Of a stretch of DNA of 64,000 nt, positions 1,426-11,212 are shown in pieces. The translations under genes were made by a program, and so were the position numbers. The stretch is taken from positions 13,775-77,774 of the forward strand of contig JAAWGF010000003.1 in the NCBI GenBank assembly GCA_022795155.1, read 5' to 3'. The notes under the pieces were generated by a model that was not told the DNA's origin, searched no databases, and saw only the letters and a program-made list of their open reading frames with translations. The stretch's first letter is position 1; the number at the start of each line of letters is the position of its first letter. Source of the DNA: Bacilli bacterium. Lineage in GTDB: Bacteria > Bacillota_I > Bacilli_A > RF39 > UBA660.

Positions 1426-3825
1426 TTACTTTATAACAATATTAACGATTTTAGATTGAATTACAATAATTTTAACAATTTCTTTTCCATCAATAAATTT
1501 TTTAACATTATCTATTTCAAGCGCTAATGCTTCCATTTCTTCTTTGGATGTATTAATATCAACTTCTAATTTTCCTCGAACTTTACCATTAACTTGAACA
1601 ACCATTTGATATTTTTCTTCTTTTGTCTTATTAATATCAAACTCTGGCCATCTAGAATAACTAATAGTATCATTATTCCCTAAAATTTGCCATAATTCCT
1701 CTGTTATATGCGGTACTACCGGATTAAGTAGTTTTAAGAAATTTAAAGCATACGCAAGTGGAAATACCTCTTCTTTATAAACGGCATTAATAAAAATCAT
1801 CATTTGACTAATAGCTGTATTAAAATTCATCGTCTCATAATCTTCGGTTACTTTTTTTACTGTTTGATGATATATTTTCTCTAAATTTTTATTATCGCTA
1901 TCTTTAATTTTATTCTCTTCAACATATAAACGCCAAACACGATCTAAAAATTTTTTTGACCCTTCAATACCATTTGGATCCCATGGTTTAGCGGCATCGA
2001 TGGGTCCCATAAACATTTCATAAAGTCGTAAACTATCAGCACCATAAAGGTTTACCATATCATCAGGATTAATAACATTTCCTTTTGATTTACTCATTTT
2101 TTCACCATTTGGTCCCAATATCATACCTTGATGACGCAATTTATGAAATGGTTCTTTAGTTGTTGTATATCCTTTATCAAATAAATAATTATTCCAAAAT
2201 CTTGAATATAATAAATGCCCTACAGCATGCTCTGGACCACCAACATATAAATCAACTGGCATCCAGTGCTCTAATAGTTTTTTATTAGCAAAATCTTCAT
2301 TATTGTCTGGATCAATATATCTTAAAAAATACCAACTTGAGCCAGCTGATCCAGGCATTGTACTTGTTTCTCTTTTACCCTTAACACCATCAATCTCTAT
2401 ATTAACCCAATCCTCAGCTTTATTAAGGGGGCTAGCACCTGTTTTACTTGGACTATAATCCTCTAAAGTAGGTAAAACTAGTGGTAATTTTGAATCATCT
2501 AAAACAATATCTTGATTATTTTCTAGATGGACAATTGGAATTGGTTCTCCCCAATATCTTTGACGAGCAAAAATCCATTCTCTTAAACGATAATTAATTT
2601 TTTTATTGCCTAACTTTTTATCCTCTAACCAATTAATCATCTTATCAATAGCGTCTTTTTTATTTAAACCATCAAGGAAATCAGAATTAATATGAGTACC
2701 ATCGCCAATATAAGGAAGTTCTGTATTATTACTATCTATGTTTTTAATAACAGGAGCAATTTCAATATTAAATTTTTGTGCAAATTCAAAATCGCGTTCA
2801 TCATGGGCAGGAACGGCCATAATCGCACCTGTCCCATAAGTTGCTAAAACATAATCAGCAATCCAAATAGGAATCTTTTTGCCATTTACAGGATTAATCG
2901 CATAGCTACCTGTAAAAACACCAGTTTTTTCTTTACTTAATTCTGTACGCTCTAATTCACTTTTACTAGCACATATAATCTTATAATTTTTTACATCTTC
3001 TGAACATTCTTCAGTAGTTATTTTATCAACTAAATCATGTTCTGGTGAAAGGACACAGTATGTAGCACCAAACAAGGTATCAGGTCTTGTCGTAAAAACT
3101 GTAAAAGTGTAATCGGTATTATTAACTTTAAAATCGACGTGAGCGCCAATCGATTTGCCAATCCAGTTTCGTTGCATCTCCTTAGTTGATTCAGGCCAAT
3201 CAATTTCATCTAAGCCATCAAGTAATCTATCTGCATATTTAGGAATATCAATAACCCATTGTTTCATATTTTTTCTAACAACTGGAAAACCACCACGTTC
3301 ACTTTTACCATCAATAATCTCATCATTAGCTAAAACAGTTCCTAATGCTTCACACCAATTAACTGGCATGTCAATATTTTTGGCTAAACCATCATTATAT
3401 AATTGTTTAAAAATCCATTGTGTCCATTTATAAAAGTTAGGGTCACAAGTAGAAACTTGTCGATCCCAATCAAAAGAAAATCCTAACATTTTTAATTGTT
3501 TTGTAAAAGTATCAATGTTTTTTTTCGTAAATCCTTCTGGATGATTGCCTGTTTTAATCGCATATTGTTCAGCTGGAAGTCCAAATGAATCAAACCCCAT
3601 AGGGTGCAAAACATTAAATCCCTGCATTCTTTTCATACGTGATACAATATCTGTTGCTGTATAACCTTCTGGATGCCCTACATGTAACCCTTGTCCTGAT
3701 GGATAAGGAAACATATCCAAAGCATAATATTTAGGCTTACTAAAATCCCAGATATCTGTTTTAAAAGTTTTATTCTCTTCCCAATATTTTTGCCATTTTT
3801 CTTCTATTTTTTTAAAATCATACAT
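1426..3825 (-). CDS. leuS: Leucyl-tRNA synthetase
   Basis: 799 aa; class I HIGH-type motif (HVGHPEGY), KMSKS motif, LeuRS length and editing-domain layout. RBS AAAGAGGG upstream. ATG overlaps the TAA of the upstream small ORF (TAATG). Confidence 0.97.
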
Positions 3826-3826
3826 A

Positions 3827-4171
3827 TTATTTACCCTCTTTCTTTAGTAATGACTTAGCTAAAATATGATAGCTAACTAATATAAGTGGAAATAAAGCAA
3901 CAAAGCCCAATAACATTTTTAAAATAAATTTATCAATAAATAAAACAATTATAAATGTCGTTGAAATTATGAAGCTATCGCATAAAGCTATCCGGTTAGA
4001 TAACGTACGTAAATTAATGGTTTCTATATTGATATGATAACGGTTAATTAAATATCTAACTTCCAAACTCTTTTTTAATTTTTCACTAGCTTTTTTCCTT
4101 TTCACAACAAATAAAAAATAAATTATGTAAACAAATATAAAAGTAATAATGTAAGTACCTAAGTATTTCAT
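3827..4171 (-). CDS. Small hydrophobic membrane protein, unknown function, translationally coupled to leuS
   Basis: Track ORF 3827..4192. The start is more likely ATG at 4171 ([11 protein letters not shown]...) because a strong RBS GAAGGAGG sits 5 nt upstream and the 4192 start would make the RBS coding. Two or three predicted TM helices. Sits between the Leu T-box and leuS. Confidence 0.5.
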
Positions 4172-4192
4172 AATGCCTCCTTCAAAACACAA

Positions 4193-4417
4193 AAAAGATA
4201 TTATTCTTTAAGGACGAGGATAACCCGCGGTACCACCTTAATTCATAATAATCTTTATGCTCTTAATATTTTTAACGCAAATGTACGTCATATATTTAAC
4301 ATATATGAAGCTAAGAAAGTAAGTTCATAATATTCAATTAAAAGTTTTCACCAACCACTTTTTCTCTAAAAACATCTATATTATTACTACTCTTTCGTAA
4401 TCACTTTTTATAAACTA
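4193..4417 (-). promoter_or_regulatory. T-box riboswitch leader, leucine-specific (UGGU bulge, putative CUU specifier)
   Basis: Minus strand reads AATTAAGGTGGTACCGCGGG (plus 4224..4244), a near-perfect match to the T-box consensus AAnnnGGGUGGnACCGCG. The UGGU bulge pairs with the ACCA end of tRNA-Leu (discriminator A). Antiterminator: UUAAGG/[UGGUACC]/GCGGG-UUAUC-CUCGU/CCUUAA. Stem I carries AGAGA..AGUGG..GGUGAAA distal-loop-like motifs and GAACUUA (CUU Leu codon). A weak AU-rich hairpin and U-run follow. Confidence 0.8.
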
Positions 4418-4423
4418 AAAGAA

Positions 4424-4452
4424 TTATAACATATATATAGTTATAATTCAAC
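4424..4452 (-). promoter_or_regulatory. Sigma-A type promoter for the Leu T-box / small ORF / leuS operon
   Basis: Minus strand TTGAAT(4452..4447)-17 nt-TATAAT(4429..4424), immediately downstream of the DUF3037-like gene stop. Confidence 0.6.
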
Positions 4453-4460
4453 GGTATTTT

Positions 4461-5249
4461 CTATTTATTATTATCAATTTTGATATTTACAAAATCTTGA
4501 ATAGAAATTATTTTTCCATATTCAGATAGCATTCTCTTATATGAATTCGTTTTCTCATTATTTAGATTATCATCTAAAACAAATATTAGTTCCTTATTCT
4601 CCTTCTTTAACATAATAGAATTAGTTATCCACATCTTTAAAATAGCGACATATCCATTATAATTATCTTCAGTCAAAAAAATCAATTTATAATACTTATC
4701 ATCTATTTTATAATCAAAATTTATATTATTGCCATATTTTTCTTGAATAGCATTTTTATGACCACATCTCTCATAAAAAATATTATTTTCTAAAAAGTGC
4801 TTTTCAATAAAAGCTTTACTTTCCATTTCATTAACTCTTTTTTCTTTGCTAATATCATAATATAAATAAATATTTTTTAAATTATCTAATAAATCTTTGA
4901 AACTATCTTCTGTATTTATTTCATGTATTTCAAAAATAAACTTATTAACAAAGTATTTCGTTAATTCATCTAATAATAAGATATTATCTAGGCTTATTCC
5001 GTCAAAATCACTTAATAAATTGATTGTAAATTGCTCCTTTAAATCATCGACATATTTTTTTAAAAATGGTATATCAGCTTCATCATCAAAACTTCTTACT
5101 CTTTTCCAATTATTAATAATAATCATATCCAATTGCTTGCTTTCTGGATAATGTAAAACGATTGCTATATTTATTCTTTCATTTCGTTCAAGATTTGGAA
5201 CATATTTTAAAACAGCATATTTAGCTTTAAATTTTCCCATTATTATCAC
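4461..5249 (-). CDS. DUF3037-like protein, partner of the upstream HipA_C-like kinase
   Basis: 262 aa. N-terminal motif KYAVLKYVPNLERNERINIAIVL resembles what I recall of the DUF3037 signature. Overlaps the upstream kinase-like gene by 23 nt (5227..5249), implying co-translation. Confidence 0.45.
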   Translation of the reverse strand: MIIMGKFKAKYAVLKYVPNLERNERINIAIVLHYPESKQLDMIIINNWKRVRSFDDEADIPFLKKYVDDLKEQFTINLLSDFDGISLDNILLLDELTKYFVNKFIFEIHEINTEDSFKDLLDNLKNIYLYYDISKEKRVNEMESKAFIEKHFLENNIFYERCGHKNAIQEKYGNNINFDYKIDDKYYKLIFLTEDNYNGYVAILKMWITNSIMLKKENKELIFVLDDNLNNEKTNSYKRMLSEYGKIISIQDFVNIKIDNNK

Positions 5250-6015
5250 CCTTCAAATTTAAAAGTTCTATAATCTCATCAACTCTGTTAAAGCGACCTA
5301 TTATATAATCAACTAATACTTTCTTTTCTTCATTACTAACTTCCCAATCACTTGGAATATCATTCATAATACTTTCAACTAATTCTTTCTTTATATTTTT
5401 TACCTTTTTTATAAATTTATTCAATTCACTATAAAATATATCGTTCAATTTAAGAGAATTCATGATATTTAAATAATTAAACTGATGTAAATATAATACG
5501 CTGAATTTTTCATTTATAAATCTAGGAAGTTGATATTTATCCCAAATAGTTCCTAATCCAAATATATGTGTATGATCTATCATTATGATTTTTTTAGAAA
5601 TGGAATGAATCATTAAATTACCTTTATTCCTATCATAATTACCAATTAATAAATCAAAAATTAAAGTTTTAATAGCATCATAACTATTTTGTGCTCTTGA
5701 GATCATTCCAGCATTCAATATAGTAAGTAATTTATCATCATAAAGTGTCCCAAAAGCAGTTCCTTCAATATGTTTAATATCTTCTTTGTCTATTTTATCA
5801 TAATTTTCTTCTTTTATATTAATTAACTTATATTCCATAATCGGTAATTCTAAGTATTCACACAATTTAGAAGCTACAAATTCATTAACAAGTGCCCTTT
5901 TTCCTTCTGGATTACCTGGAAATTTTACGACATAAGTTTTACCATCATCACACCATACAACATAAGGAACTGTACAGCCATTACCAAGTTTATTTTTTAT
6001 TTCAACAATATTCAA
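5227..6015 (-). CDS. HipA C-terminal-domain-like Ser/Thr kinase-fold protein (short, no HipA N-domain)
   Basis: 262 aa. NEFVASKLCEYLELPIMEYKLI matches the start of HipA_C (NEhltmrLArlaGi.v). GNYDRNKGN aligns to the HipA catalytic loop DxHxxN with H replaced by N. IDHTHIFG is a DFG-like Mg-binding region. Confidence 0.55.
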   Translation of the reverse strand: MNIVEIKNKLGNGCTVPYVVWCDDGKTYVVKFPGNPEGKRALVNEFVASKLCEYLELPIMEYKLINIKEENYDKIDKEDIKHIEGTAFGTLYDDKLLTILNAGMISRAQNSYDAIKTLIFDLLIGNYDRNKGNLMIHSISKKIIMIDHTHIFGLGTIWDKYQLPRFINEKFSVLYLHQFNYLNIMNSLKLNDIFYSELNKFIKKVKNIKKELVESIMNDIPSDWEVSNEEKKVLVDYIIGRFNRVDEIIELLNLKGDNNGKI

Positions 6016-6287
6016 ATAGTACCACCTCGCAAGGTTTTACTATTATAATTCAATTATAACACATATTAAAATAATATATATATTATATAAAGATAATTAT
6101 AATAGTTTACAAAAATATTTACAAAGTCTGTACTAGCCCCTTGAATAAGTGATATTATAACACTTTTAGATTATAATGCAATATACAAATTTATTCCCCA
6201 TACTTTAAATATAGTTTGATTAATAAAGAAAATCCTTCTTAAATAAACAAAAAAACGAAATTTACAATAAATTTCATTTTTCTCTTG

Positions 6288-8714
6288 TTAAACTTCACTA
6301 ATATATTCTAATAATTTTAAGAATAATCGAATGAATTTTCTTTCTAAACCAACTTTTTTTAATTTACGAAGCGCTATTCTTTTTTTCTTAAGTGGTAATT
6401 CACTAAAAATAATTTGATCTATCGTTTCCTTCATTTCCGTTTCAATCTGTAAATCATATAAAATTGATTGAATCTCCTCATTAATTAATCTAACTGTGTC
6501 TATTTCAATGTTTTTACCCTTGCAATTAAGTGTTAATTGACCAATTGTCGGAATCTCATTTATTTCAACTACAAAGTCATTATCTTCAATATAACTTTTA
6601 TATTGGACAGGCTCATTATTAAAATAAATAATAACATCATTAGCCTCTTTCGTATTTCTAAATCGAACTTTATAATTTCGTTTTTCAGGAACAATACCAC
6701 TTTTACCTTCAAGGGCTCTAATTATAACTGTATAATTATTCGGCAAATAATTATATTCAATTGAAGATTTTAAATAATAACCCGTTTTATAAAGATCACT
6801 AACACCATCATCTTCATATAATTCATATTTATTGCTTCGTCCCGGAAAAATTTGAATTTCCATATTTTTAGGTGGTGTTGTATCATTCATATTTTCATTA
6901 TCACCCAATGCAATAATAGATCCAGCTTTGGCAAAAACTGGGTAATCATCATCTTTAAAGAAAGACACATAATTTTTACCACCAGGGAACTTTTTCCCAG
7001 TAACAAAATCATACCAAATCCCCTCTGGCATATAGAATTTGTGAATAACTCGTTGCATAACAGATTCTTTTTTATTTATAATGGGACAAATGAATAGCTC
7101 ACTACCTAAATAATATTCATTTCTATAAATTGGATCATCATACATCTCAGGGTTTTTATAATAAATTGGCTGAATAACAGGAACACCATGTTTATGATAT
7201 TTGTAAGCTTCTGTATATAAATAAGGAATTAAACGATGACGTAATTTTAAATAATCCTTAACAATATTATAAGTTTTATACCCCCATTTCCATGGCTCAC
7301 GACGATAATATTTACCTTTTTCACTACCAAATTTTAAAATGGGACTAAATGTTCCTAATTGAACATAGCGTGTATATAATTCATCATCCTCAATACCTTT
7401 ATAAAAACCACCAATATCATGACTCCACCAACTTACACCATTATTAGCTGCACTTGCATTATGAATTGGAATAAGTTTCAAAGTAGCCCAACTAACAGTG
7501 CTTTTTCCCGAATATAAAACAGGATAACGATGTGGCGCAATTAAGGAATTAGTTGTAAGTAACATTGGTCTTCTTTTATAATTTCGCATCATATCATAAA
7601 AATGATAATGATTTAAAATCCATAAATCATCATTTTTTTTAGGATTGTTATAATCTAACCAAAAGAAATCAACATCTAAATTATCCAATGGATGAATAAG
7701 TAGTTTTAAATATACGTCTAAAAATTTAGGATCTAAAACATTAAAAGGAATAATTGTTCCAGGCGTAACTTGTAAATATTCGCATATCTTATTATAATAA
7801 ACTTCATAAGGATAAATTCCTGAACTCGGATCGATATTTAATCCTAACCTAATTCCTTTCGAATGAAGATAAGCAATTATTTCCTTAGGATTTTTTATTA
7901 GCGTATTATTAAAAGTAAAACCTGTTTCGATATTTGATACTTCATCATACTTATTTAAATGCCATTCATTATTTAAAACAATAACGGAAAGGGGAATATT
8001 TTTATTTTCAAAATTAGAAACCAATTCGCCTAGACTATCATCAGTATATGAGATATTACGACTCCACCAATTTCCTAAAGCATAACGAGGAATTAAAGCT
8101 GGATACCCAGTTAAACGATAATAATCATCTAAACAACCTTGGAAATTTTTATAATACATAAATAAATAAATATCAATATCATTTTTATCATTATTACGTT
8201 CAATAACGCTACCAGTTTCTTCAATTATTAAGCTTTTAGAATCATCAATACTAACAAAGCCATCAATAGAATATAAACCTTTTTTATATTTGGCCCTATG
8301 TTTTTTCCCTTTTTTTTCATATAACTCTAAACCTGGGCTACCGTAATTACGTACTTCAGGATGACCATAATACCAAATGCGATCACTACCTAATAACTCA
8401 ACTTTTAGATTAGCGGTTGGATTTATTTTAGTAGCAGGAAATGGCTTATCTTTTAAATAGGTTAAGCAAAAGTATTTAGTAGTTATTTCTAAATATTTCG
8501 CATCCTGTTTAACTTTAAAGTCAACTACCCCTAAATCCCTATGCCATGCAAACTGGGTTGGTCGATCTTCAAAAATTCCATTTTCACTATACTCTAATCT
8601 AACTAATCTTTCAGTAATAACGGAAATACGATATTTTTGGCCTACCATTATACATTTTGGATTAACTTTAGATAATGTATAATCTATTTCAAATTGTTCG
8701 CCAATCTTATACAT
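6288..8714 (-). CDS. Glycoside hydrolase family 31-like protein (alpha-glucosidase/alpha-xylosidase type)
   Basis: 808 aa. WLDYNNP (nucleophile Asp region) and WSHDIGGF (acid/base region) fit the GH31 TIM barrel. Size and N-terminal beta-sandwich typical. Confidence 0.65.
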   Translation of the reverse strand: MYKIGEQFEIDYTLSKVNPKCIMVGQKYRISVITERLVRLEYSENGIFEDRPTQFAWHRDLGVVDFKVKQDAKYLEITTKYFCLTYLKDKPFPATKINPTANLKVELLGSDRIWYYGHPEVRNYGSPGLELYEKKGKKHRAKYKKGLYSIDGFVSIDDSKSLIIEETGSVIERNNDKNDIDIYLFMYYKNFQGCLDDYYRLTGYPALIPRYALGNWWSRNISYTDDSLGELVSNFENKNIPLSVIVLNNEWHLNKYDEVSNIETGFTFNNTLIKNPKEIIAYLHSKGIRLGLNIDPSSGIYPYEVYYNKICEYLQVTPGTIIPFNVLDPKFLDVYLKLLIHPLDNLDVDFFWLDYNNPKKNDDLWILNHYHFYDMMRNYKRRPMLLTTNSLIAPHRYPVLYSGKSTVSWATLKLIPIHNASAANNGVSWWSHDIGGFYKGIEDDELYTRYVQLGTFSPILKFGSEKGKYYRREPWKWGYKTYNIVKDYLKLRHRLIPYLYTEAYKYHKHGVPVIQPIYYKNPEMYDDPIYRNEYYLGSELFICPIINKKESVMQRVIHKFYMPEGIWYDFVTGKKFPGGKNYVSFFKDDDYPVFAKAGSIIALGDNENMNDTTPPKNMEIQIFPGRSNKYELYEDDGVSDLYKTGYYLKSSIEYNYLPNNYTVIIRALEGKSGIVPEKRNYKVRFRNTKEANDVIIYFNNEPVQYKSYIEDNDFVVEINEIPTIGQLTLNCKGKNIEIDTVRLINEEIQSILYDLQIETEMKETIDQIIFSELPLKKKRIALRKLKKVGLERKFIRLFLKLLEYISEV

Positions 8715-8737: not shown

Positions 8738-9178
8738 TTATTCATTCTTTTTATTCATTTTCCTTATTCTTTTTAATATAAATAGTATTATAAATAGTAG
8801 CACAATTATAATTGTGGCAATTACATAATTATACAGATTGGTGGGTTCTTCTTCTCTTTCTTCAACAATTTCCTCTTGGTCTAAAATGTTGGCAAAAATA
8901 TATTCTCCACTTTCCTTAGAATACAAAAAATATTCTCTTGCATATCTTGCTTTATACTCATCATTTTTTAACTTAGATAATTCTTTAGTTAAATTTGTTT
9001 CATCTTCTTGTAATTTTGTTAAGTTATTTTGTAAGGTTTGTTGTTCTAAACTAAGATTTTTTATATTTAACAGCATCGAAAAAGCACTAAAAATAAAGTA
9101 TGATATTACTACAACACTAAGACCACCAAAAATAATAAGTCTTCTTTTTGATTCTTTTGTTACTTTTCTTTTTACCAC
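8738..9178 (-). CDS. divIC: Septum formation initiator DivIC/FtsB family
   Basis: N-terminal TM, coiled coil, and NDEYKARYAREYFLYSKESGEYIF matching the B. subtilis DivIC C-terminal motif (DEDYVTELARRDLFMSGDGEIIF). Conserved yabP-yabQ-divIC order. Confidence 0.85.
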   Translation of the reverse strand: MVKRKVTKESKRRLIIFGGLSVVVISYFIFSAFSMLLNIKNLSLEQQTLQNNLTKLQEDETNLTKELSKLKNDEYKARYAREYFLYSKESGEYIFANILDQEEIVEEREEEPTNLYNYVIATIIIVLLFIILFILKRIRKMNKKNE

Positions 9179-9209
9179 ATAACCACCACCCTACCGTATA
9201 ATCAGTATA

Positions 9210-9497
9210 TCATTTTTTAGTTTTTTTGGCAATAATACGATTAATACAAATGTCAACAAAAAAGCCAATTATAACCATAATAATTGAATACGGATGAAGA
9301 ATAGCGTTATTTATTTTTTTTATACTAATAAAATAAACTAATACAGCTATAATTATAATTAAAAAAGACGATAGAATTTTTATAAAAGGTTTAGAACTAT
9401 AAATAAATTTATAATTAATATTTAAAAATATGGAAAAAATAAATCCATAAAAAAAAGAAAAAACAATTAAAATTATTTGCGTTTTTAAATCCATCAT
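9210..9497 (-). CDS. yabQ: Spore cortex biosynthesis membrane protein YabQ
   Basis: 95 aa, three TM helices, directly downstream of yabP with a 4-nt overlap (ATGA); B. subtilis synteny. Confidence 0.6.
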   Translation of the reverse strand: MMDLKTQIILIVFSFFYGFIFSIFLNINYKFIYSSKPFIKILSSFLIIIIAVLVYFISIKKINNAILHPYSIIMVIIGFFVDICINRIIAKKTKK

Positions 9498-9784
9498 TTA
9501 AATAACTTATTAAATACTCCGTCTTCTTTACTTTTTTTAGATAAACTTTCCATATATGTTAAACTATTAACTTTTCCCTTAATGGAAACATTTCCTTGGT
9601 ATGTATCTAATTTTACAATTTCTAAATCTTCGCCTTTTAAAACAATATACCCCATATTAGTTTCCATTAAAAATTCTTCATTATCAAAACTATCAATTTT
9701 TTTTACTCCTGTAATAACAATATTTTTACGTTCACTTAAAGTTACAACATGTCCTAATGTATTAAAACTTTCTACCTTGTCCAT
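9494..9784 (-). CDS. yabP: Sporulation protein YabP
   Basis: 96 aa; LTLSERKNIVITGVKKIDSFDNEEFLMETNMGYIVLKGEDLEI matches the YabP family. Confidence 0.8.
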   Translation of the reverse strand: MDKVESFNTLGHVVTLSERKNIVITGVKKIDSFDNEEFLMETNMGYIVLKGEDLEIVKLDTYQGNVSIKGKVNSLTYMESLSKKSKEDGVFNKLFK

Positions 9785-9852
9785 ATAAACCTCCTAATTC
9801 AATATATGTAGAGATTTAAAAAATATTAAAAAAAAATCAATAATTTGATTTT

Positions 9853-10110
9853 TTATTCAGCTTCATTATAAGCATCAAGAATTGCTTTTTCAAACATTTC
9901 TCTTGTTTCTTGATTTATTGGATGAGCTACATCATGACGTTTAGTATCATCGATTTTACGGCTTGGCATAGCAATAAATAATTTGTCATCGCCTTGAATA
10001 ATTCTAATATCACGAACAGCGAAACAGTCATCAATTACTACTGAGACAATTCCTTTCATTCTTGAGTTTTCCTTTTCTGTCTTATGAACATTTACAGATG
10101 TAATTTTCAA
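9853..10110 (-). CDS. spoVG: Septation protein SpoVG
   Basis: 85 aa; MKITSVNVHK...GIVSVVIDDCFAVRDIRIIQGDDKLFIAMPSRK...HDVAHPIN is near-identical to the SpoVG family. Confidence 0.92.
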   Translation of the reverse strand: MKITSVNVHKTEKENSRMKGIVSVVIDDCFAVRDIRIIQGDDKLFIAMPSRKIDDTKRHDVAHPINQETREMFEKAILDAYNEAE

Positions 10111-10197
10111 GTAAATCTCTCCCTTCAGTCTATCTACTACAAGTTTATTGTATACTAAAAAAATTAGAAAATCAATAGTTATTTATAAAAATGCGCA

Positions 10198-10410
10198 TTA
10201 ATAGTCGATTTTTATCGTTTTAGTAATAACATCAGAATATGAAAATGATTTAATCTCATTTTTTATTTTTGATTCTTTAATTTCGACAAGAAAAACATTT
10301 TTATAAAGTTCCTTTATTTTCGCATTATATTTTTCATATTTATTCCGTCCAAGACTACACTTTATGACTACTTCTTTACCTAAAAATTCATTAAGCCTAC
10401 CTCTAATCTG
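10198..10410 (-). CDS. veg: Veg protein (biofilm/sporulation-associated small DNA-binding protein)
   Basis: Track ORF 10198..10497 overlaps yabG. A GTG at 10410 preceded by GAGGAGG gives MTIEQIRGRLNEFLGKEVVIKCSLGRNK...VFLVEIKES..SFSYSDVIT.TIKI, matching B. subtilis Veg (about 86 aa). Confidence 0.85.
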   Translation of the reverse strand, partial: QIRGRLNEFLGKEVVIKCSLGRNKYEKYNAKIKELYKNVFLVEIKESKIKNEIKSFSYSDVITKTIKIDY

Positions 10411-10432
10411 TTCTATTGTCACAAATTCCTCC

Positions 10433-11212
10433 TCATCTAGGATAACCAATATACATTGTCCCTTTTGTTTTGATACCACCCATTCCATCTTTACCATACT
10501 TGGTATTTTCTAAAATATTGATTAAATCAATATCTTTGCTGATGTCGGATAAGCTGACACGAGTCGCAATAATGGCAGGATCTAATGCATGAATATTGAT
10601 GCGTTTAGGACTAGAAGCAAAGTTAGCACCAGCTTTAATTAATTCTTCGTAGTCTGATTGACAAGCACCAGCAATAATAATTAATTTTTCATGACTATGT
10701 TCATATTTTCTCGCCTCTTTAATTGAAGCAACAAAATTTTGGCTATTTTTATATGCTGACAAATCATCACGCCCACCTTTTTTTTTATAATAAGCATCAT
10801 GGCCAGTTATAACTAAGATATTAGGATTGTGAAGTTCTAGTAATTCACGAATTTTAAAAGGAACATTTTCTTCATCTTCTCTAACACCGATGGCCATTAA
10901 ATTGTCTTCTTCATAATATTTTAAACATTTATCTAAATATTCATTATCCCCATCAATATGTAATATTTTGCCTGGTAAATAAAAAAATTCGCTTCGATCT
11001 AGATCCAAATTGGGCTTTATACGTTCTAAAAATTCTTGATCTTCTTCAAATTCTTGATCATATATAATTAAGTCATCAACAGGACTATCCGCAATTAGTC
11101 TAACATTAATTCCTTTTAAATAGCAAATATCATTGTCAATTGATATAATTTTAAAAACCATATCATTATTATAGGAATTTCTAGTAACTAAATCTCCTTC
11201 TTTAAAATCCAT
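10433..11212 (-). CDS. yabG: Sporulation-specific protease YabG
   Basis: 259 aa; the N-terminus MDFKEGDLVTRNSYNNDMVFKIISID..VRLIADS matches the YabG family; yabG-veg adjacency as in Bacillus. Confidence 0.8.
   Translation of the reverse strand: MDFKEGDLVTRNSYNNDMVFKIISIDNDICYLKGINVRLIADSPVDDLIIYDQEFEEDQEFLERIKPNLDLDRSEFFYLPGKILHIDGDNEYLDKCLKYYEEDNLMAIGVREDEENVPFKIRELLELHNPNILVITGHDAYYKKKGGRDDLSAYKNSQNFVASIKEARKYEHSHEKLIIIAGACQSDYEELIKAGANFASSPKRINIHALDPAIIATRVSLSDISKDIDLINILENTKYGKDGMGGIKTKGTMYIGYPR

Follow-up and report, generated by a model that had tools for sequence, protein, structure and literature searches.

A kinase/DUF3037 gene pair of the HipAD/DS-6 family, a candidate anti-phage system, in the chromosome of a gut Bacilli bacterium

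Layout of the cassette and its flanks

The window, the whole 64,000-nucleotide stretch of DNA analysed here, carries a two-gene cassette on the minus strand. Checking its open reading frames, we found a kinase gene (5227-6015) overlapping a gene for a DUF3037 partner (4461-5240), in agreement with an earlier sequence-only reading that had placed two genes here. The cassette and its surroundings comprise the following features.

5227..6015, minus strand: hipA-like kinase gene, 262 aa, TTG start, Pfam HipA_2
6022-6028, minus strand: Shine-Dalgarno (SD) sequence of the kinase, GAGGTGG
5617-5643, minus strand: GNYDRNKGN, catalytic loop, kinase residues 125-133
5566-5577, minus strand: DHTH (D147-H-x-H150), Mg site, kinase residues 147-150
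5227-5229, minus strand: kinase stop
5227..5240, minus strand: kinase/partner overlap of 14 nt, kinase 3' end and partner start
5246-5254, minus strand: partner SD GAAGGGTGA, within the kinase coding sequence
4461..5249, minus strand: partner open reading frame from a GTG, 262 aa
4461-5240, minus strand: partner open reading frame from the ATG at 5240, 259 aa
4836..5240, minus strand: N-terminal DUF3037 domain of the hipD-like partner, residues 1-135
4461..4835, minus strand: C-terminal domain of the hipD-like partner, residues 136-259 and stop codon, without Pfam annotation
6016..6124, minus strand: cassette upstream region with SD, two promoter matches and an inverted repeat
6124..6096, minus strand: sigma-70-like promoter match TTGTAA-17-TATAAT
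6069..6042, minus strand: sigma-70-like promoter match TTAATA-16-TATAAT
6039-6050 / 6095-6106, minus strand: perfect 12-nt inverted repeat ACTATTATAATT, weak candidate operator
4207-4410, minus strand: T-box leader for leuS, Rfam RF00230, 120.9 bits against a gathering score of 93, full model 1-219
1426-3825: LeuRS gene
6288-8714: GH31 gene

Judged from the sequence, the ATG at 5240 is the most probable start codon of the window partner. This ATG is the partner start in all homologues and the first codon of a 259-aa database protein (P0068) that is 100% identical to the window partner; it lies 5 nt downstream of the SD GAAGGGTGA, and the GTG falls within that SD. With this start and the kinase stop at 5227-5229, the genes overlap by 14 nt, not by the 23 nt reported earlier, and the partner has 259 rather than 262 residues. 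The location of the partner SD within the kinase coding sequence suggests that the partner is translationally coupled to the kinase. Coupling and a kinase-first order had both been proposed, and this order is kept in 15 of 15 complete relatives. Overlap or abutment of the two genes is likewise retained in relatives, and all contigs of the window species have both reading frames intact.

The cassette does lie between the leuS operon and a GH31 gene, as previously described, but the further claim that it was inserted there found no support: in the window species it is fixed between housekeeping genes and present in every contig, and none of 10 places from the species showed an empty site. At this locus we found neither defence genes nor mobile genes nearby, and no direct or inverted repeats that convincingly flank the cassette. 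Apart from the T-box, a search for RNAs, tRNAs included, gave no match. The strong promoter ascribed to the neighbouring operon indeed belongs to that operon; more exactly, it is the promoter of the T-box leader. Upstream of the cassette, the inverted repeat ACTATTATAATT was equalled in 12 of 300 Markov simulations, and thus is only a weak candidate for an operator. Part of this upstream sequence is also conserved among cassettes from different genomic contexts.

The kinase and its two-domain partner

In Pfam searches, the window kinase matched HipA_2 (PF20613) with 90.4 bits against a cut-off of 27 (E 1.4e-25, profile positions 1-221 of 240), whereas HipA_C (PF07804) reached 16 bits, below its cut-off of 30.5. 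The earlier label of HipA_C-like was thus imprecise: of the two Pfam families it had named, DUF3037 was recovered and HipA_C was not, HipA_2 taking its place. No N-terminal HipA domain was matched in the 262-aa protein, as had been noticed, and an NCBIfam search gave no match for kinase or partner. The motifs that had been singled out, DRNKGN and a DHT region, are present at residues 125-133 (GNYDRNKGN) and 147-150 (DHTH). We found a Gly-rich loop (G13-x-T15-x-P17) and a set of invariant residues, K31, E45, D128-R-N130-x-G-N133 and D147-H-x-H150. K31, E45, D128, N133 and D147 are unchanged across 39 aligned relatives, and DRNxGN, including Asn130, is invariant in 39/39, down to 33% identity. 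An AF2 model of the kinase (pLDDT 92, pTM 0.90) has a kinase fold, and Foldseek with this model retrieved CtkA, PI3K/PI4K and HipA. PDB sequence searches with the single kinase and partner sequences returned nothing significant; a search with the kinase profile returned CtkA as its sole match.

The window kinase departs from the DxHxxN motif: its loop reads DRNKGN, with an Asn, invariant in the clade, at the His position. The sequence-only reading asked from this substitution whether the kinase is active, and one could accordingly picture the protein as an inactive pseudokinase, and the pair as a decaying remnant or as having a non-catalytic role, since HipA, CtkA and PI3K all carry His in their DxHxxN/DRHxxN loops. 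However, the invariance of Asn130 and of all other catalytic residues in the 39 relatives points to purifying selection on the kinase. In addition, the validated, functional DS-6A has Thr at the position of Asn130 and needs the adjacent Asp, and both reading frames are intact throughout the species. These comparisons show that a catalytic loop with Asn (or Thr) at this position is normal for the HipAD/DS-6 kinase family. We rejected the pseudokinase idea on residue conservation and on the comparison with DS-6A, and regard it as extremely improbable.

The partner matched DUF3037 (PF11236) with 52.6 bits against a cut-off of 22.6 (E 6.6e-14), which upholds the DUF3037-like N-terminus seen earlier. 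We built a partner family profile of 53 sequences from a 1.8-billion-protein representative search; all 53 representatives match DUF3037, and R135, the end of the domain, is present in 53/53. Across this family, the C-terminal half matched neither DUF1829 nor any PDDEXK family in Pfam, and a PDB search with the profile gave nothing significant; the DUF1829 assignment published for DS-6B has an HHpred probability of only 0.78 (PMC13092281). The C-terminal half was modelled as an alpha-beta-beta-beta-alpha-beta, restriction-endonuclease-like fold, for which the Foldseek similarity was not significant. Within it, D176, K185 and K202 are conserved, D176 and K185 almost invariantly. Position 171, usually acidic in the family, is Asn in the window partner, and Tyr183, two residues before K185, occupies the (D/E) site of (D/E)xK. 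We hypothesize that the unannotated half of HipD is endonuclease-like in fold and carries a conserved set of Asp and Lys residues, a modest new point that could guide experiments on trigger and target.

In the close clade, the partner is better conserved than the kinase (for example, 73.9% versus 60.9%), an unusual pattern for an antitoxin. Two relatives, L010 and L030, have a nonsense codon in the partner and an intact kinase. We considered an alternative genetic code for these split partners and rejected it, as the stop codons are TAA. These nonsense codons suggest that survival of the kinase may not strictly require a complete partner.

Relatives and family assignment

The pair had been described as not characterised. 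It is, however, the PADLOC phage-defence candidate PDC-M66 (PMC12548924), and it has been validated both as DS-6/HipAD (PMC13092281) and as a module beside Retron-Sda1 (PMC12548924). DS-6 defends E. coli against phage, and its D139A mutant does not (PMC13092281). In the HipA/DUF3037 pair beside Retron-Sda1, deletion of the kinase abolishes defence and deletion of the DUF3037 gene is toxic, while the reverse transcriptase (RT) and ncRNA of that locus are dispensable for this defence (PMC12548924). The name HipAD for DS-6 is that of Brenes & Laub 2025, as cited in PMC13092281, and GenBank PV340545.1 (E. coli phage PhiR5_1) annotates the pair as 'HipA toxin' and 'HipD antitoxin'.

Both window proteins matched the PADLOC models, the kinase PDC-M66A (E 8e-22, residues 4-249) and the partner PDC-M66B (E 9.9e-8, covering only the first ~70 residues). 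We also compared them with the DS-6A/B reference sequences from the supplement of PMC13092281. The kinase aligned with DS-6A by BLASTP (E 4e-14, 27% identity) and by hhalign (99.4%, E 1e-21), and D128 aligns with D139 of DS-6A. For the partner, direct BLASTP and a narrow-profile hhalign aligned residues 1-135 only, and from these N-terminal alignments we entertained a swapped C-terminal domain; this was rejected, because the broader, 53-sequence profile gave full-length homology to DS-6B (hhalign 97.2%, E 3.9e-11, residues 4-252 on 1-265). Going by their scores, the family matches of the cassette are far beyond chance. By homology, we conclude that the window cassette is a member of the HipAD/DS-6/PDC-M66 family, a known system. 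The Pfam, PADLOC and DS-6A/B results agree with the sequence-only reading insofar as it saw a HipA-derived kinase and a DUF3037 protein in a toxin-antitoxin or defence-type module.

A species-level genome scan found a DUF3037 reading frame directly downstream of the kinase in all 15 complete true-relative loci; E. coli and S. aureus phage 52A have the same kinase-to-partner order. Loci L033-L096 (Acidobacteriota and others) were discarded as unrelated kinases, with a catalytic-loop match only and no DUF3037 neighbour. We counted at least 8 distinct genomic contexts for the pair, which moves between them as a unit. One relative (L016) sits in a defence island with a methyltransferase, SNF2, AAA_21+RloB and SocA_Panacea, and another (L014) with NERD and a transposase; others lie in S. 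aureus temperate phages and in an E. coli lambdoid phage, where the pair is annotated as HipA toxin/HipD antitoxin. Most close relatives sit among housekeeping genes. These relatives extend HipAD/DS-6 from Enterobacteria and Bacteroidota/Pseudomonadota to uncultured gut Bacilli, Tenericutes-like lineages and staphylococcal temperate phages.

Proposed mechanism and comparison with known systems

We propose, as the probable reading, that the window cassette is a chromosomal HipAD two-gene anti-phage system, a kinase toxin with a coupled, two-domain HipD-type partner. The compact HipA_2-family Ser/Thr kinase would be the toxin, and the partner would bind it, hold it inactive and probably also bind DNA. 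Phage infection would release or activate the kinase, which would then phosphorylate an essential host component; by analogy with HipA and HipT this would most likely belong to translation, an aminoacyl-tRNA synthetase being one example. Growth of the infected cell would stop, and the phage could not multiply. Here we infer the trigger and target of HipAD, the physical neutralisation of the kinase by its partner, and the activity of the window copy. Our analysis supports this reading with the homology of both proteins, the intact catalytic residues, the gene order and coupling, and the mobility of the pair as a unit. Experiments on homologues showed that defence depends on the kinase and on its catalytic Asp, and that cells suffer toxicity when the DUF3037 gene is lost (PMC13092281, PMC12548924). 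Against the HipAD reading, we count the low identity, the fixation among housekeeping genes, the better-conserved partner and the partner nonsense codons of L010 and L030.

The fixation of the cassette at a core chromosomal locus away from defence genes, together with the housekeeping surroundings of its close relatives, would also fit a conventional toxin-antitoxin or addiction module with the same kinase/partner logic, serving stress tolerance, persistence or locus stabilisation and having no anti-phage role in this host; indeed, HipA-family modules first became known for persistence (PMC8262856). Two independent homologues, however, give phage defence (PMC13092281, PMC12548924), and more distant relatives occupy defence islands and prophage accessory loci. 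We therefore consider a purely conventional module unlikely, while noting that the two roles are not mutually exclusive. Less probable again, and in our view quite doubtful, is that the partner is the effector, its PD-(D/E)xK-like C-terminal domain acting as a nuclease or a nucleic-acid sensor that the kinase regulates or with which it acts jointly. Of D176, K185 and K202, validated E. coli HipD keeps only K185; the window partner itself has Asn at 171 and Tyr at the (D/E) of (D/E)xK, and its Foldseek similarity was not significant. Moreover, the toxicity of partner deletion and the loss of defence upon kinase deletion in homologues (PMC12548924) fit the kinase as the toxin.

The cassette adjoins the leuS operon in two genomes, on opposite sides: the window has it upstream of the T-box, L023 downstream of leuS. 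This adjacency might point to a functional link with leucyl-tRNA synthetase, which could be the target of the kinase or have its T-box operon regulated by read-through. So might two further facts: we detected no terminator in the stretch from the partner stop to the T-box promoter, and aminoacyl-tRNA synthetases are targets of HipA and HipT (PMC10627512, PMC8262856). At least six other contexts, however, have no nearby leuS, and the window and L023 cassettes share upstream sequence, which may reflect one ancestral placement followed by rearrangement. Such a link is hardly credible to us, although, given the repeated adjacency, one may speculate that LeuRS is the kinase target in the window lineage. 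Within the HipAD reading, we tentatively suggest, while thinking it rather less than likely, that HipD-type partners are the sensing half and not passive antitoxins: the C-terminal domain would recognise or cut a nucleic-acid feature of the phage and thereby free the kinase held by DUF3037. If true, this would explain why the partner is conserved above the toxin and how natural DUF3037-only truncations coexist with an intact kinase.

Among known systems, E. coli HipAD/DS-6 (WP_000389051.1 and WP_000210934.1) shares with the window a HipA_2 kinase followed by an overlapping gene for a DUF3037 protein (~260-275 aa). Both kinases are compact (~250-260 aa) and lack the HipA N-subdomain; homology spans the full length of kinase and partner alike, with the catalytic Asp aligned. 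Nevertheless, the kinases are only 27% identical and the partners ~20%. The loop is a compact DRNKGN in the window and DRTLTDKGGN in E. coli, and the genes overlap by 14 nt and 4 nt, respectively. Of D176, K185 and K202, all kept in the C-terminal domain of the window partner, E. coli HipD has only K185. The window cassette occupies a chromosomal, housekeeping locus in a gut Bacilli MAG; the E. coli pair belongs to the immunity region of a lambdoid prophage. Both PDC-M66 HMMs match the window, although PDC-M66 is a bioinformatic candidate class and not a mechanism. The Retron-Sda1 pair, compared by domain description, has the same domains and shows standalone defence with toxin/neutraliser genetics (PMC12548924); unlike at that locus, no reverse transcriptase or ncRNA lies near the window cassette.

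The closest solved structure to the window kinase is Helicobacter pylori CtkA (PDB 3AKJ/3AKK; Foldseek E 3.5e-7, profile E 5.7e-4 over the full length). Their GNxDR(H/N)xGN loops align, but CtkA has DRHNGN and is a secreted, stand-alone proinflammatory kinase without a DUF3037 partner. We rejected membership in canonical HipBA, as HipA_C is under threshold and both HipB and DxH are missing: no HTH protein of the HipB type was found upstream, where a 272-nt intergenic region is followed by GH31, and the sole partner is the downstream DUF3037 protein. The term 'DUF' does not occur in the Gerdes HipA survey paper, nor HipA in Payne et al. 2024. Canonical HipBA (E. coli K-12) and HipBST/HipIN resemble the window in kinase fold, in catalytic logic and in pairing a toxin kinase with a cognate protein that neutralises it. 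HipBA differs in its loop (DxHxxN versus DRNxGN) and in HipA_C, for which the window kinase scores 16 bits against the 30.5 required; the partner is HipB, HipS or HIRAN in those systems, and DUF3037 plus a modelled endonuclease-like fold in the window. HipT, HipI and HipJ, like the window kinase, lack N-subdomain-1, and the window partner, like that of hipIN, is a downstream two-domain protein, with one domain that probably binds nucleic acid (PMC8262856).

Organization of the cassette and probable activity of its kinase

As the sequence-only reading had described, two overlapping ORFs occupy positions 4461-6015; both lie on the minus strand. The features of the cassette and of the operon that follows it are:

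6022-6028, minus strand: Shine-Dalgarno (SD) sequence GAGGTGG, 6 nt before TTG 6015
5227-6015, minus strand: kinase ORF, 262 aa, TTG start at 6015
4451..4423, minus strand: T-box promoter TTGAAT-17-TGnTATAAT, near-consensus, extended -10
4207-4410, minus strand: T-box leader (RF00230), full-length, 120.9 bits
3827-4171, minus strand: 114-aa membrane protein gene, driven by the T-box promoter
1426-3825, minus strand: leuS, driven by the T-box promoter, after the 114-aa membrane protein gene

A start at GTG 5249 would give the partner 262 aa and the 23-nt overlap originally proposed. Because an identical (100%) database protein, P0068 ('DUF3037 domain-containing protein', MAG Bacilli bacterium), and all homologues begin at ATG 5240, 5 nt downstream of the SD GAAGGGTGA, and because GTG 5249 forms part of that same SD, the partner is, as judged from sequence, 259 aa long and the overlap 14 nt.

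The kinase matched Pfam HipA_2 (PF20613; E 1.4e-25, 90.4 bits) and PADLOC PDC-M66A (E 8e-22), with a borderline match to PI3_PI4_kinase. The partner matched PDC-M66B (E 1e-7) and Pfam DUF3037 (E 6.6e-14), the latter over residues 8-70 only (11-73 in the 262-aa GTG-start translation; 259-aa numbering is used throughout). NCBIfam returned nothing for either protein. The predicted DUF3037 assignment thus held, and in place of the predicted HipA_C, which scored 16 bits against a cut-off of 30.5, HipA_2 matched.

The earlier reading had also questioned kinase activity, citing a His-to-Asn substitution in the catalytic loop. In a PDB profile search this loop aligned with LLGNFDRHNGN of CtkA, so that Asn130 does occupy the His position. 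Across two alignments, with 19 and 39 relatives and identities as low as 33%, residues K31, E45, D128, R129, N130, G132, N133, D147, H148 and H150 are invariant; Asn130 is thus, on these alignments, the norm within the clade, and DS-6A, the functional E. coli kinase, has Thr at this position. Modelled singly, the kinase gave a confident AF2 structure (pLDDT 92, pTM 0.90), whose best structural matches were CtkA, PI3K/PI4K/ATM and HipA. Because the catalytic residues are invariant, Asn130 is typical of the clade, DS-6A has Thr and the model is confident, we infer that the window kinase is very probably active, and the substitution no longer argues against it.

The partner and its C-terminal half

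In the AF2 model of the partner (pLDDT 83, pTM 0.77), residues 1-~130 form an N-terminal domain, and the C-terminal part folds as an alpha-beta-beta-beta-alpha-beta unit. Pfam recognized no family in the C-terminal half of any of 53 members, and Foldseek listed an endonuclease-like class for this unit, below significance; for DS-6B, the validated E. coli partner, a DUF1829 call has been published (HHpred probability 0.78; PMC13092281). Among the 53 representatives, R135 is kept in all 53, K185 in 51, and D176 and K202 in 49 each, and position 171 is acidic in 42. The window clade carries Asn171 and has Tyr in place of the (D/E) of (D/E)xK, and E. coli HipD retains, of the conserved C-terminal residues, the Lys alone. 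The modelled C-terminal half is probably an endonuclease-like domain that binds nucleic acid; catalysis by it is doubtful.

Within the close clade (window versus L007-L023), partners are 71-77% identical and kinases 57-69% (e.g., 73.9% versus 60.9%, and 72.9% versus 57.4%). The partner is thus consistently more conserved than the kinase, the reverse of usual toxin-antitoxin pairs and a poor fit to a plain antitoxin. In two relatives an in-frame TAA interrupts the partner while the kinase ORF is intact: one after ~residue 137, just past the DUF3037 domain (L010:7190-7192; GAA to TAA relative to locus L009, a single G-to-T change), and one at ~residue 111 (L030:3311-3313), downstream of its kinase. 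These nonsense codons could be sequencing errors; should they prove genuine, neutralising or tolerating the kinase may require no more than the N-terminal domain.

Regulatory surroundings and genomic contexts

The AT-rich DNA and strong promoter noted earlier 3' of the partner proved to be the T-box leader and promoter of the leuS operon. This promoter begins 10 nt past the partner stop codon, and we found no terminator-like site between it and the cassette. Two promoter-like sites lie 5' of the window kinase, as does a perfect 12-nt inverted repeat (6039-6050 / 6095-6106), which is weakly unusual (reached in 4% of simulations). At a similar place, three relatives (L007:5930-5970, L017:4926-4971, L020:4923-4974) have instead a 15-19-nt inverted repeat, TGTACTAAAATTT ... 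AAATTAAAGTACA, around a predicted -10 box. These repeats are candidate autoregulatory operators. Because the upstream region is conserved among relatives in different contexts, the cassette seems, from sequence comparison, to bring its own regulatory DNA.

In L023, from a gut Bacilli MAG (kinase 58% identical; L023:554-5579 versus window 1426-6015), the cassette lies directly 3' of the same TM-protein/leuS operon; the window has it 5' of the leuS T-box. Both cassettes are preceded by a common segment, GCTAGTACAG(A/G)C(C/T)TTGT. This adjacency could stem from an ancestral placement that was later rearranged, or from a hotspot; any functional connection with LeuRS is purely speculative. Genes for sporulation and cell division (divIC, yabQ-like, yabP, spoVG, veg, yabG-type peptidase U57, spoIVA) lie elsewhere in the window (8738-11212 and the 1-1400 region), which suggests that the host, whose intergenic DNA is ~20% GC, forms endospores.

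When one genome per species was scanned, 16 true relatives emerged, belonging to uncultured Bacilli, 'Tenericutes', Acholeplasmataceae and Clostridium sp. CAG:594. The pairing is conserved: a DUF3037 ORF immediately follows the kinase in all 15 complete loci. The other 64 loci of the scan were discarded as relatives, since the catalytic loop alone matches. These proteins (L033-L096, Acidobacteriota and other MAGs) share only the GNxDRNxGN region with the window kinase, have no DUF3037 neighbour, sometimes occur in tandem (four adjacent ORFs in L068), and look like a separate kinase family.

Contexts of the pair in relatives and phage
L007: capsule locus and PBP5
L011: ABC transporter and DUF1287
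L014: NERD and Y1 transposase
L016: clear defence island (methyltransferase, ParB_N, SNF2, AAA_21+RloB, SocA_Panacea)
Further loci: neighbours Mn-catalase, GpsA/Obg, Ddl, UDG or HAD
L108 (Staphylococcus phage 52A, NC_007062.1), 2489-4027: HipA_2 kinase then ORF019, in the endolysin-integrase accessory locus

In temperate phages of S. aureus and S. epidermidis (52A, SAP-26, PhiSepi-HH1 and others), the endolysin-integrase accessory locus encodes a HipA_2 kinase under the annotation 'phosphatidylinositol kinase' and, after it, ORF019, which Pfam does not recognize and which the DUF3037-family partner profile matches at 99.2%. These phages carry an apparently unannotated HipAD-like pair. Given the many contexts and the carriage by S. 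aureus phages, the cassette moves as a unit, at times phage-borne. Within the species of the window the cassette is fixed: it was present in all 10 places with the neighbouring 114-aa protein gene, and no empty site was found among them. The earlier description of the cassette as inserted is plausible.

Relationship to HipAD/DS-6

The architecture had been called uncharacterised, a view that is out of date because the pair has been published both as a Retron-Sda1 neighbour module and as DS-6/HipAD. A HipA-like kinase and DUF3037 gene adjoin Retron-Sda1; defence against phage Bas51 was lost when the kinase was deleted, deletion of the DUF3037 gene was toxic, and the RT and ncRNA were dispensable (PMC12548924). 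The same study describes DUF3037 and HipA-like genes as strongly associated, the PADLOC name for the pair being PDC-M66. The E. coli pair DS-6 was validated by the DefensePredictor study: DS-6A D139A lost defence, and AF3 predicts a DS-6A/DS-6B complex and, more weakly, DNA binding (PMC13092281). That paper states that Brenes & Laub 2025 independently discovered DS-6 and gave it the new name HipAD. In Escherichia phage PhiR5_1 (PV340545.1), a 'HipA toxin' and 'HipD antitoxin', with Pfam scores equal to those of DS-6A/B, are annotated between cI and kil.

Using reference sequences from the supplement of PMC13092281, we found that the window kinase is 27% identical to DS-6A over ~240 residues (BLASTP, E 4e-14), that its profile matches the DS-6A sequence (99.4%, E 1e-21), and that D128 aligns with D139. 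Direct comparisons of the partner with DS-6B aligned only the N-terminal ~100-135 residues; the idea of a different C-terminal domain was dropped once a 53-sequence profile aligned full length. When 1.8 billion representative proteins were searched exhaustively, 222 partner relatives emerged, most of 245-290 aa, aligning full length at 23-33% identity. Because residues 4-252 of the 53-sequence profile, which was built from these relatives, align with 1-265 of the enterobacterial HipD group (97.2%, E 3.9e-11), both partner domains are, by profile alignment, homologous to HipD.

The broad reading of a kinase toxin and partner forming a defence or toxin-antitoxin module was right: the pair is a member of the already named, experimentally validated HipAD/DS-6 family, and only its lineage and particulars of the C-terminal domain of the partner are new. 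E. coli DS-6 has the same gene order and overlapping arrangement, with an overlap of 4 nt.
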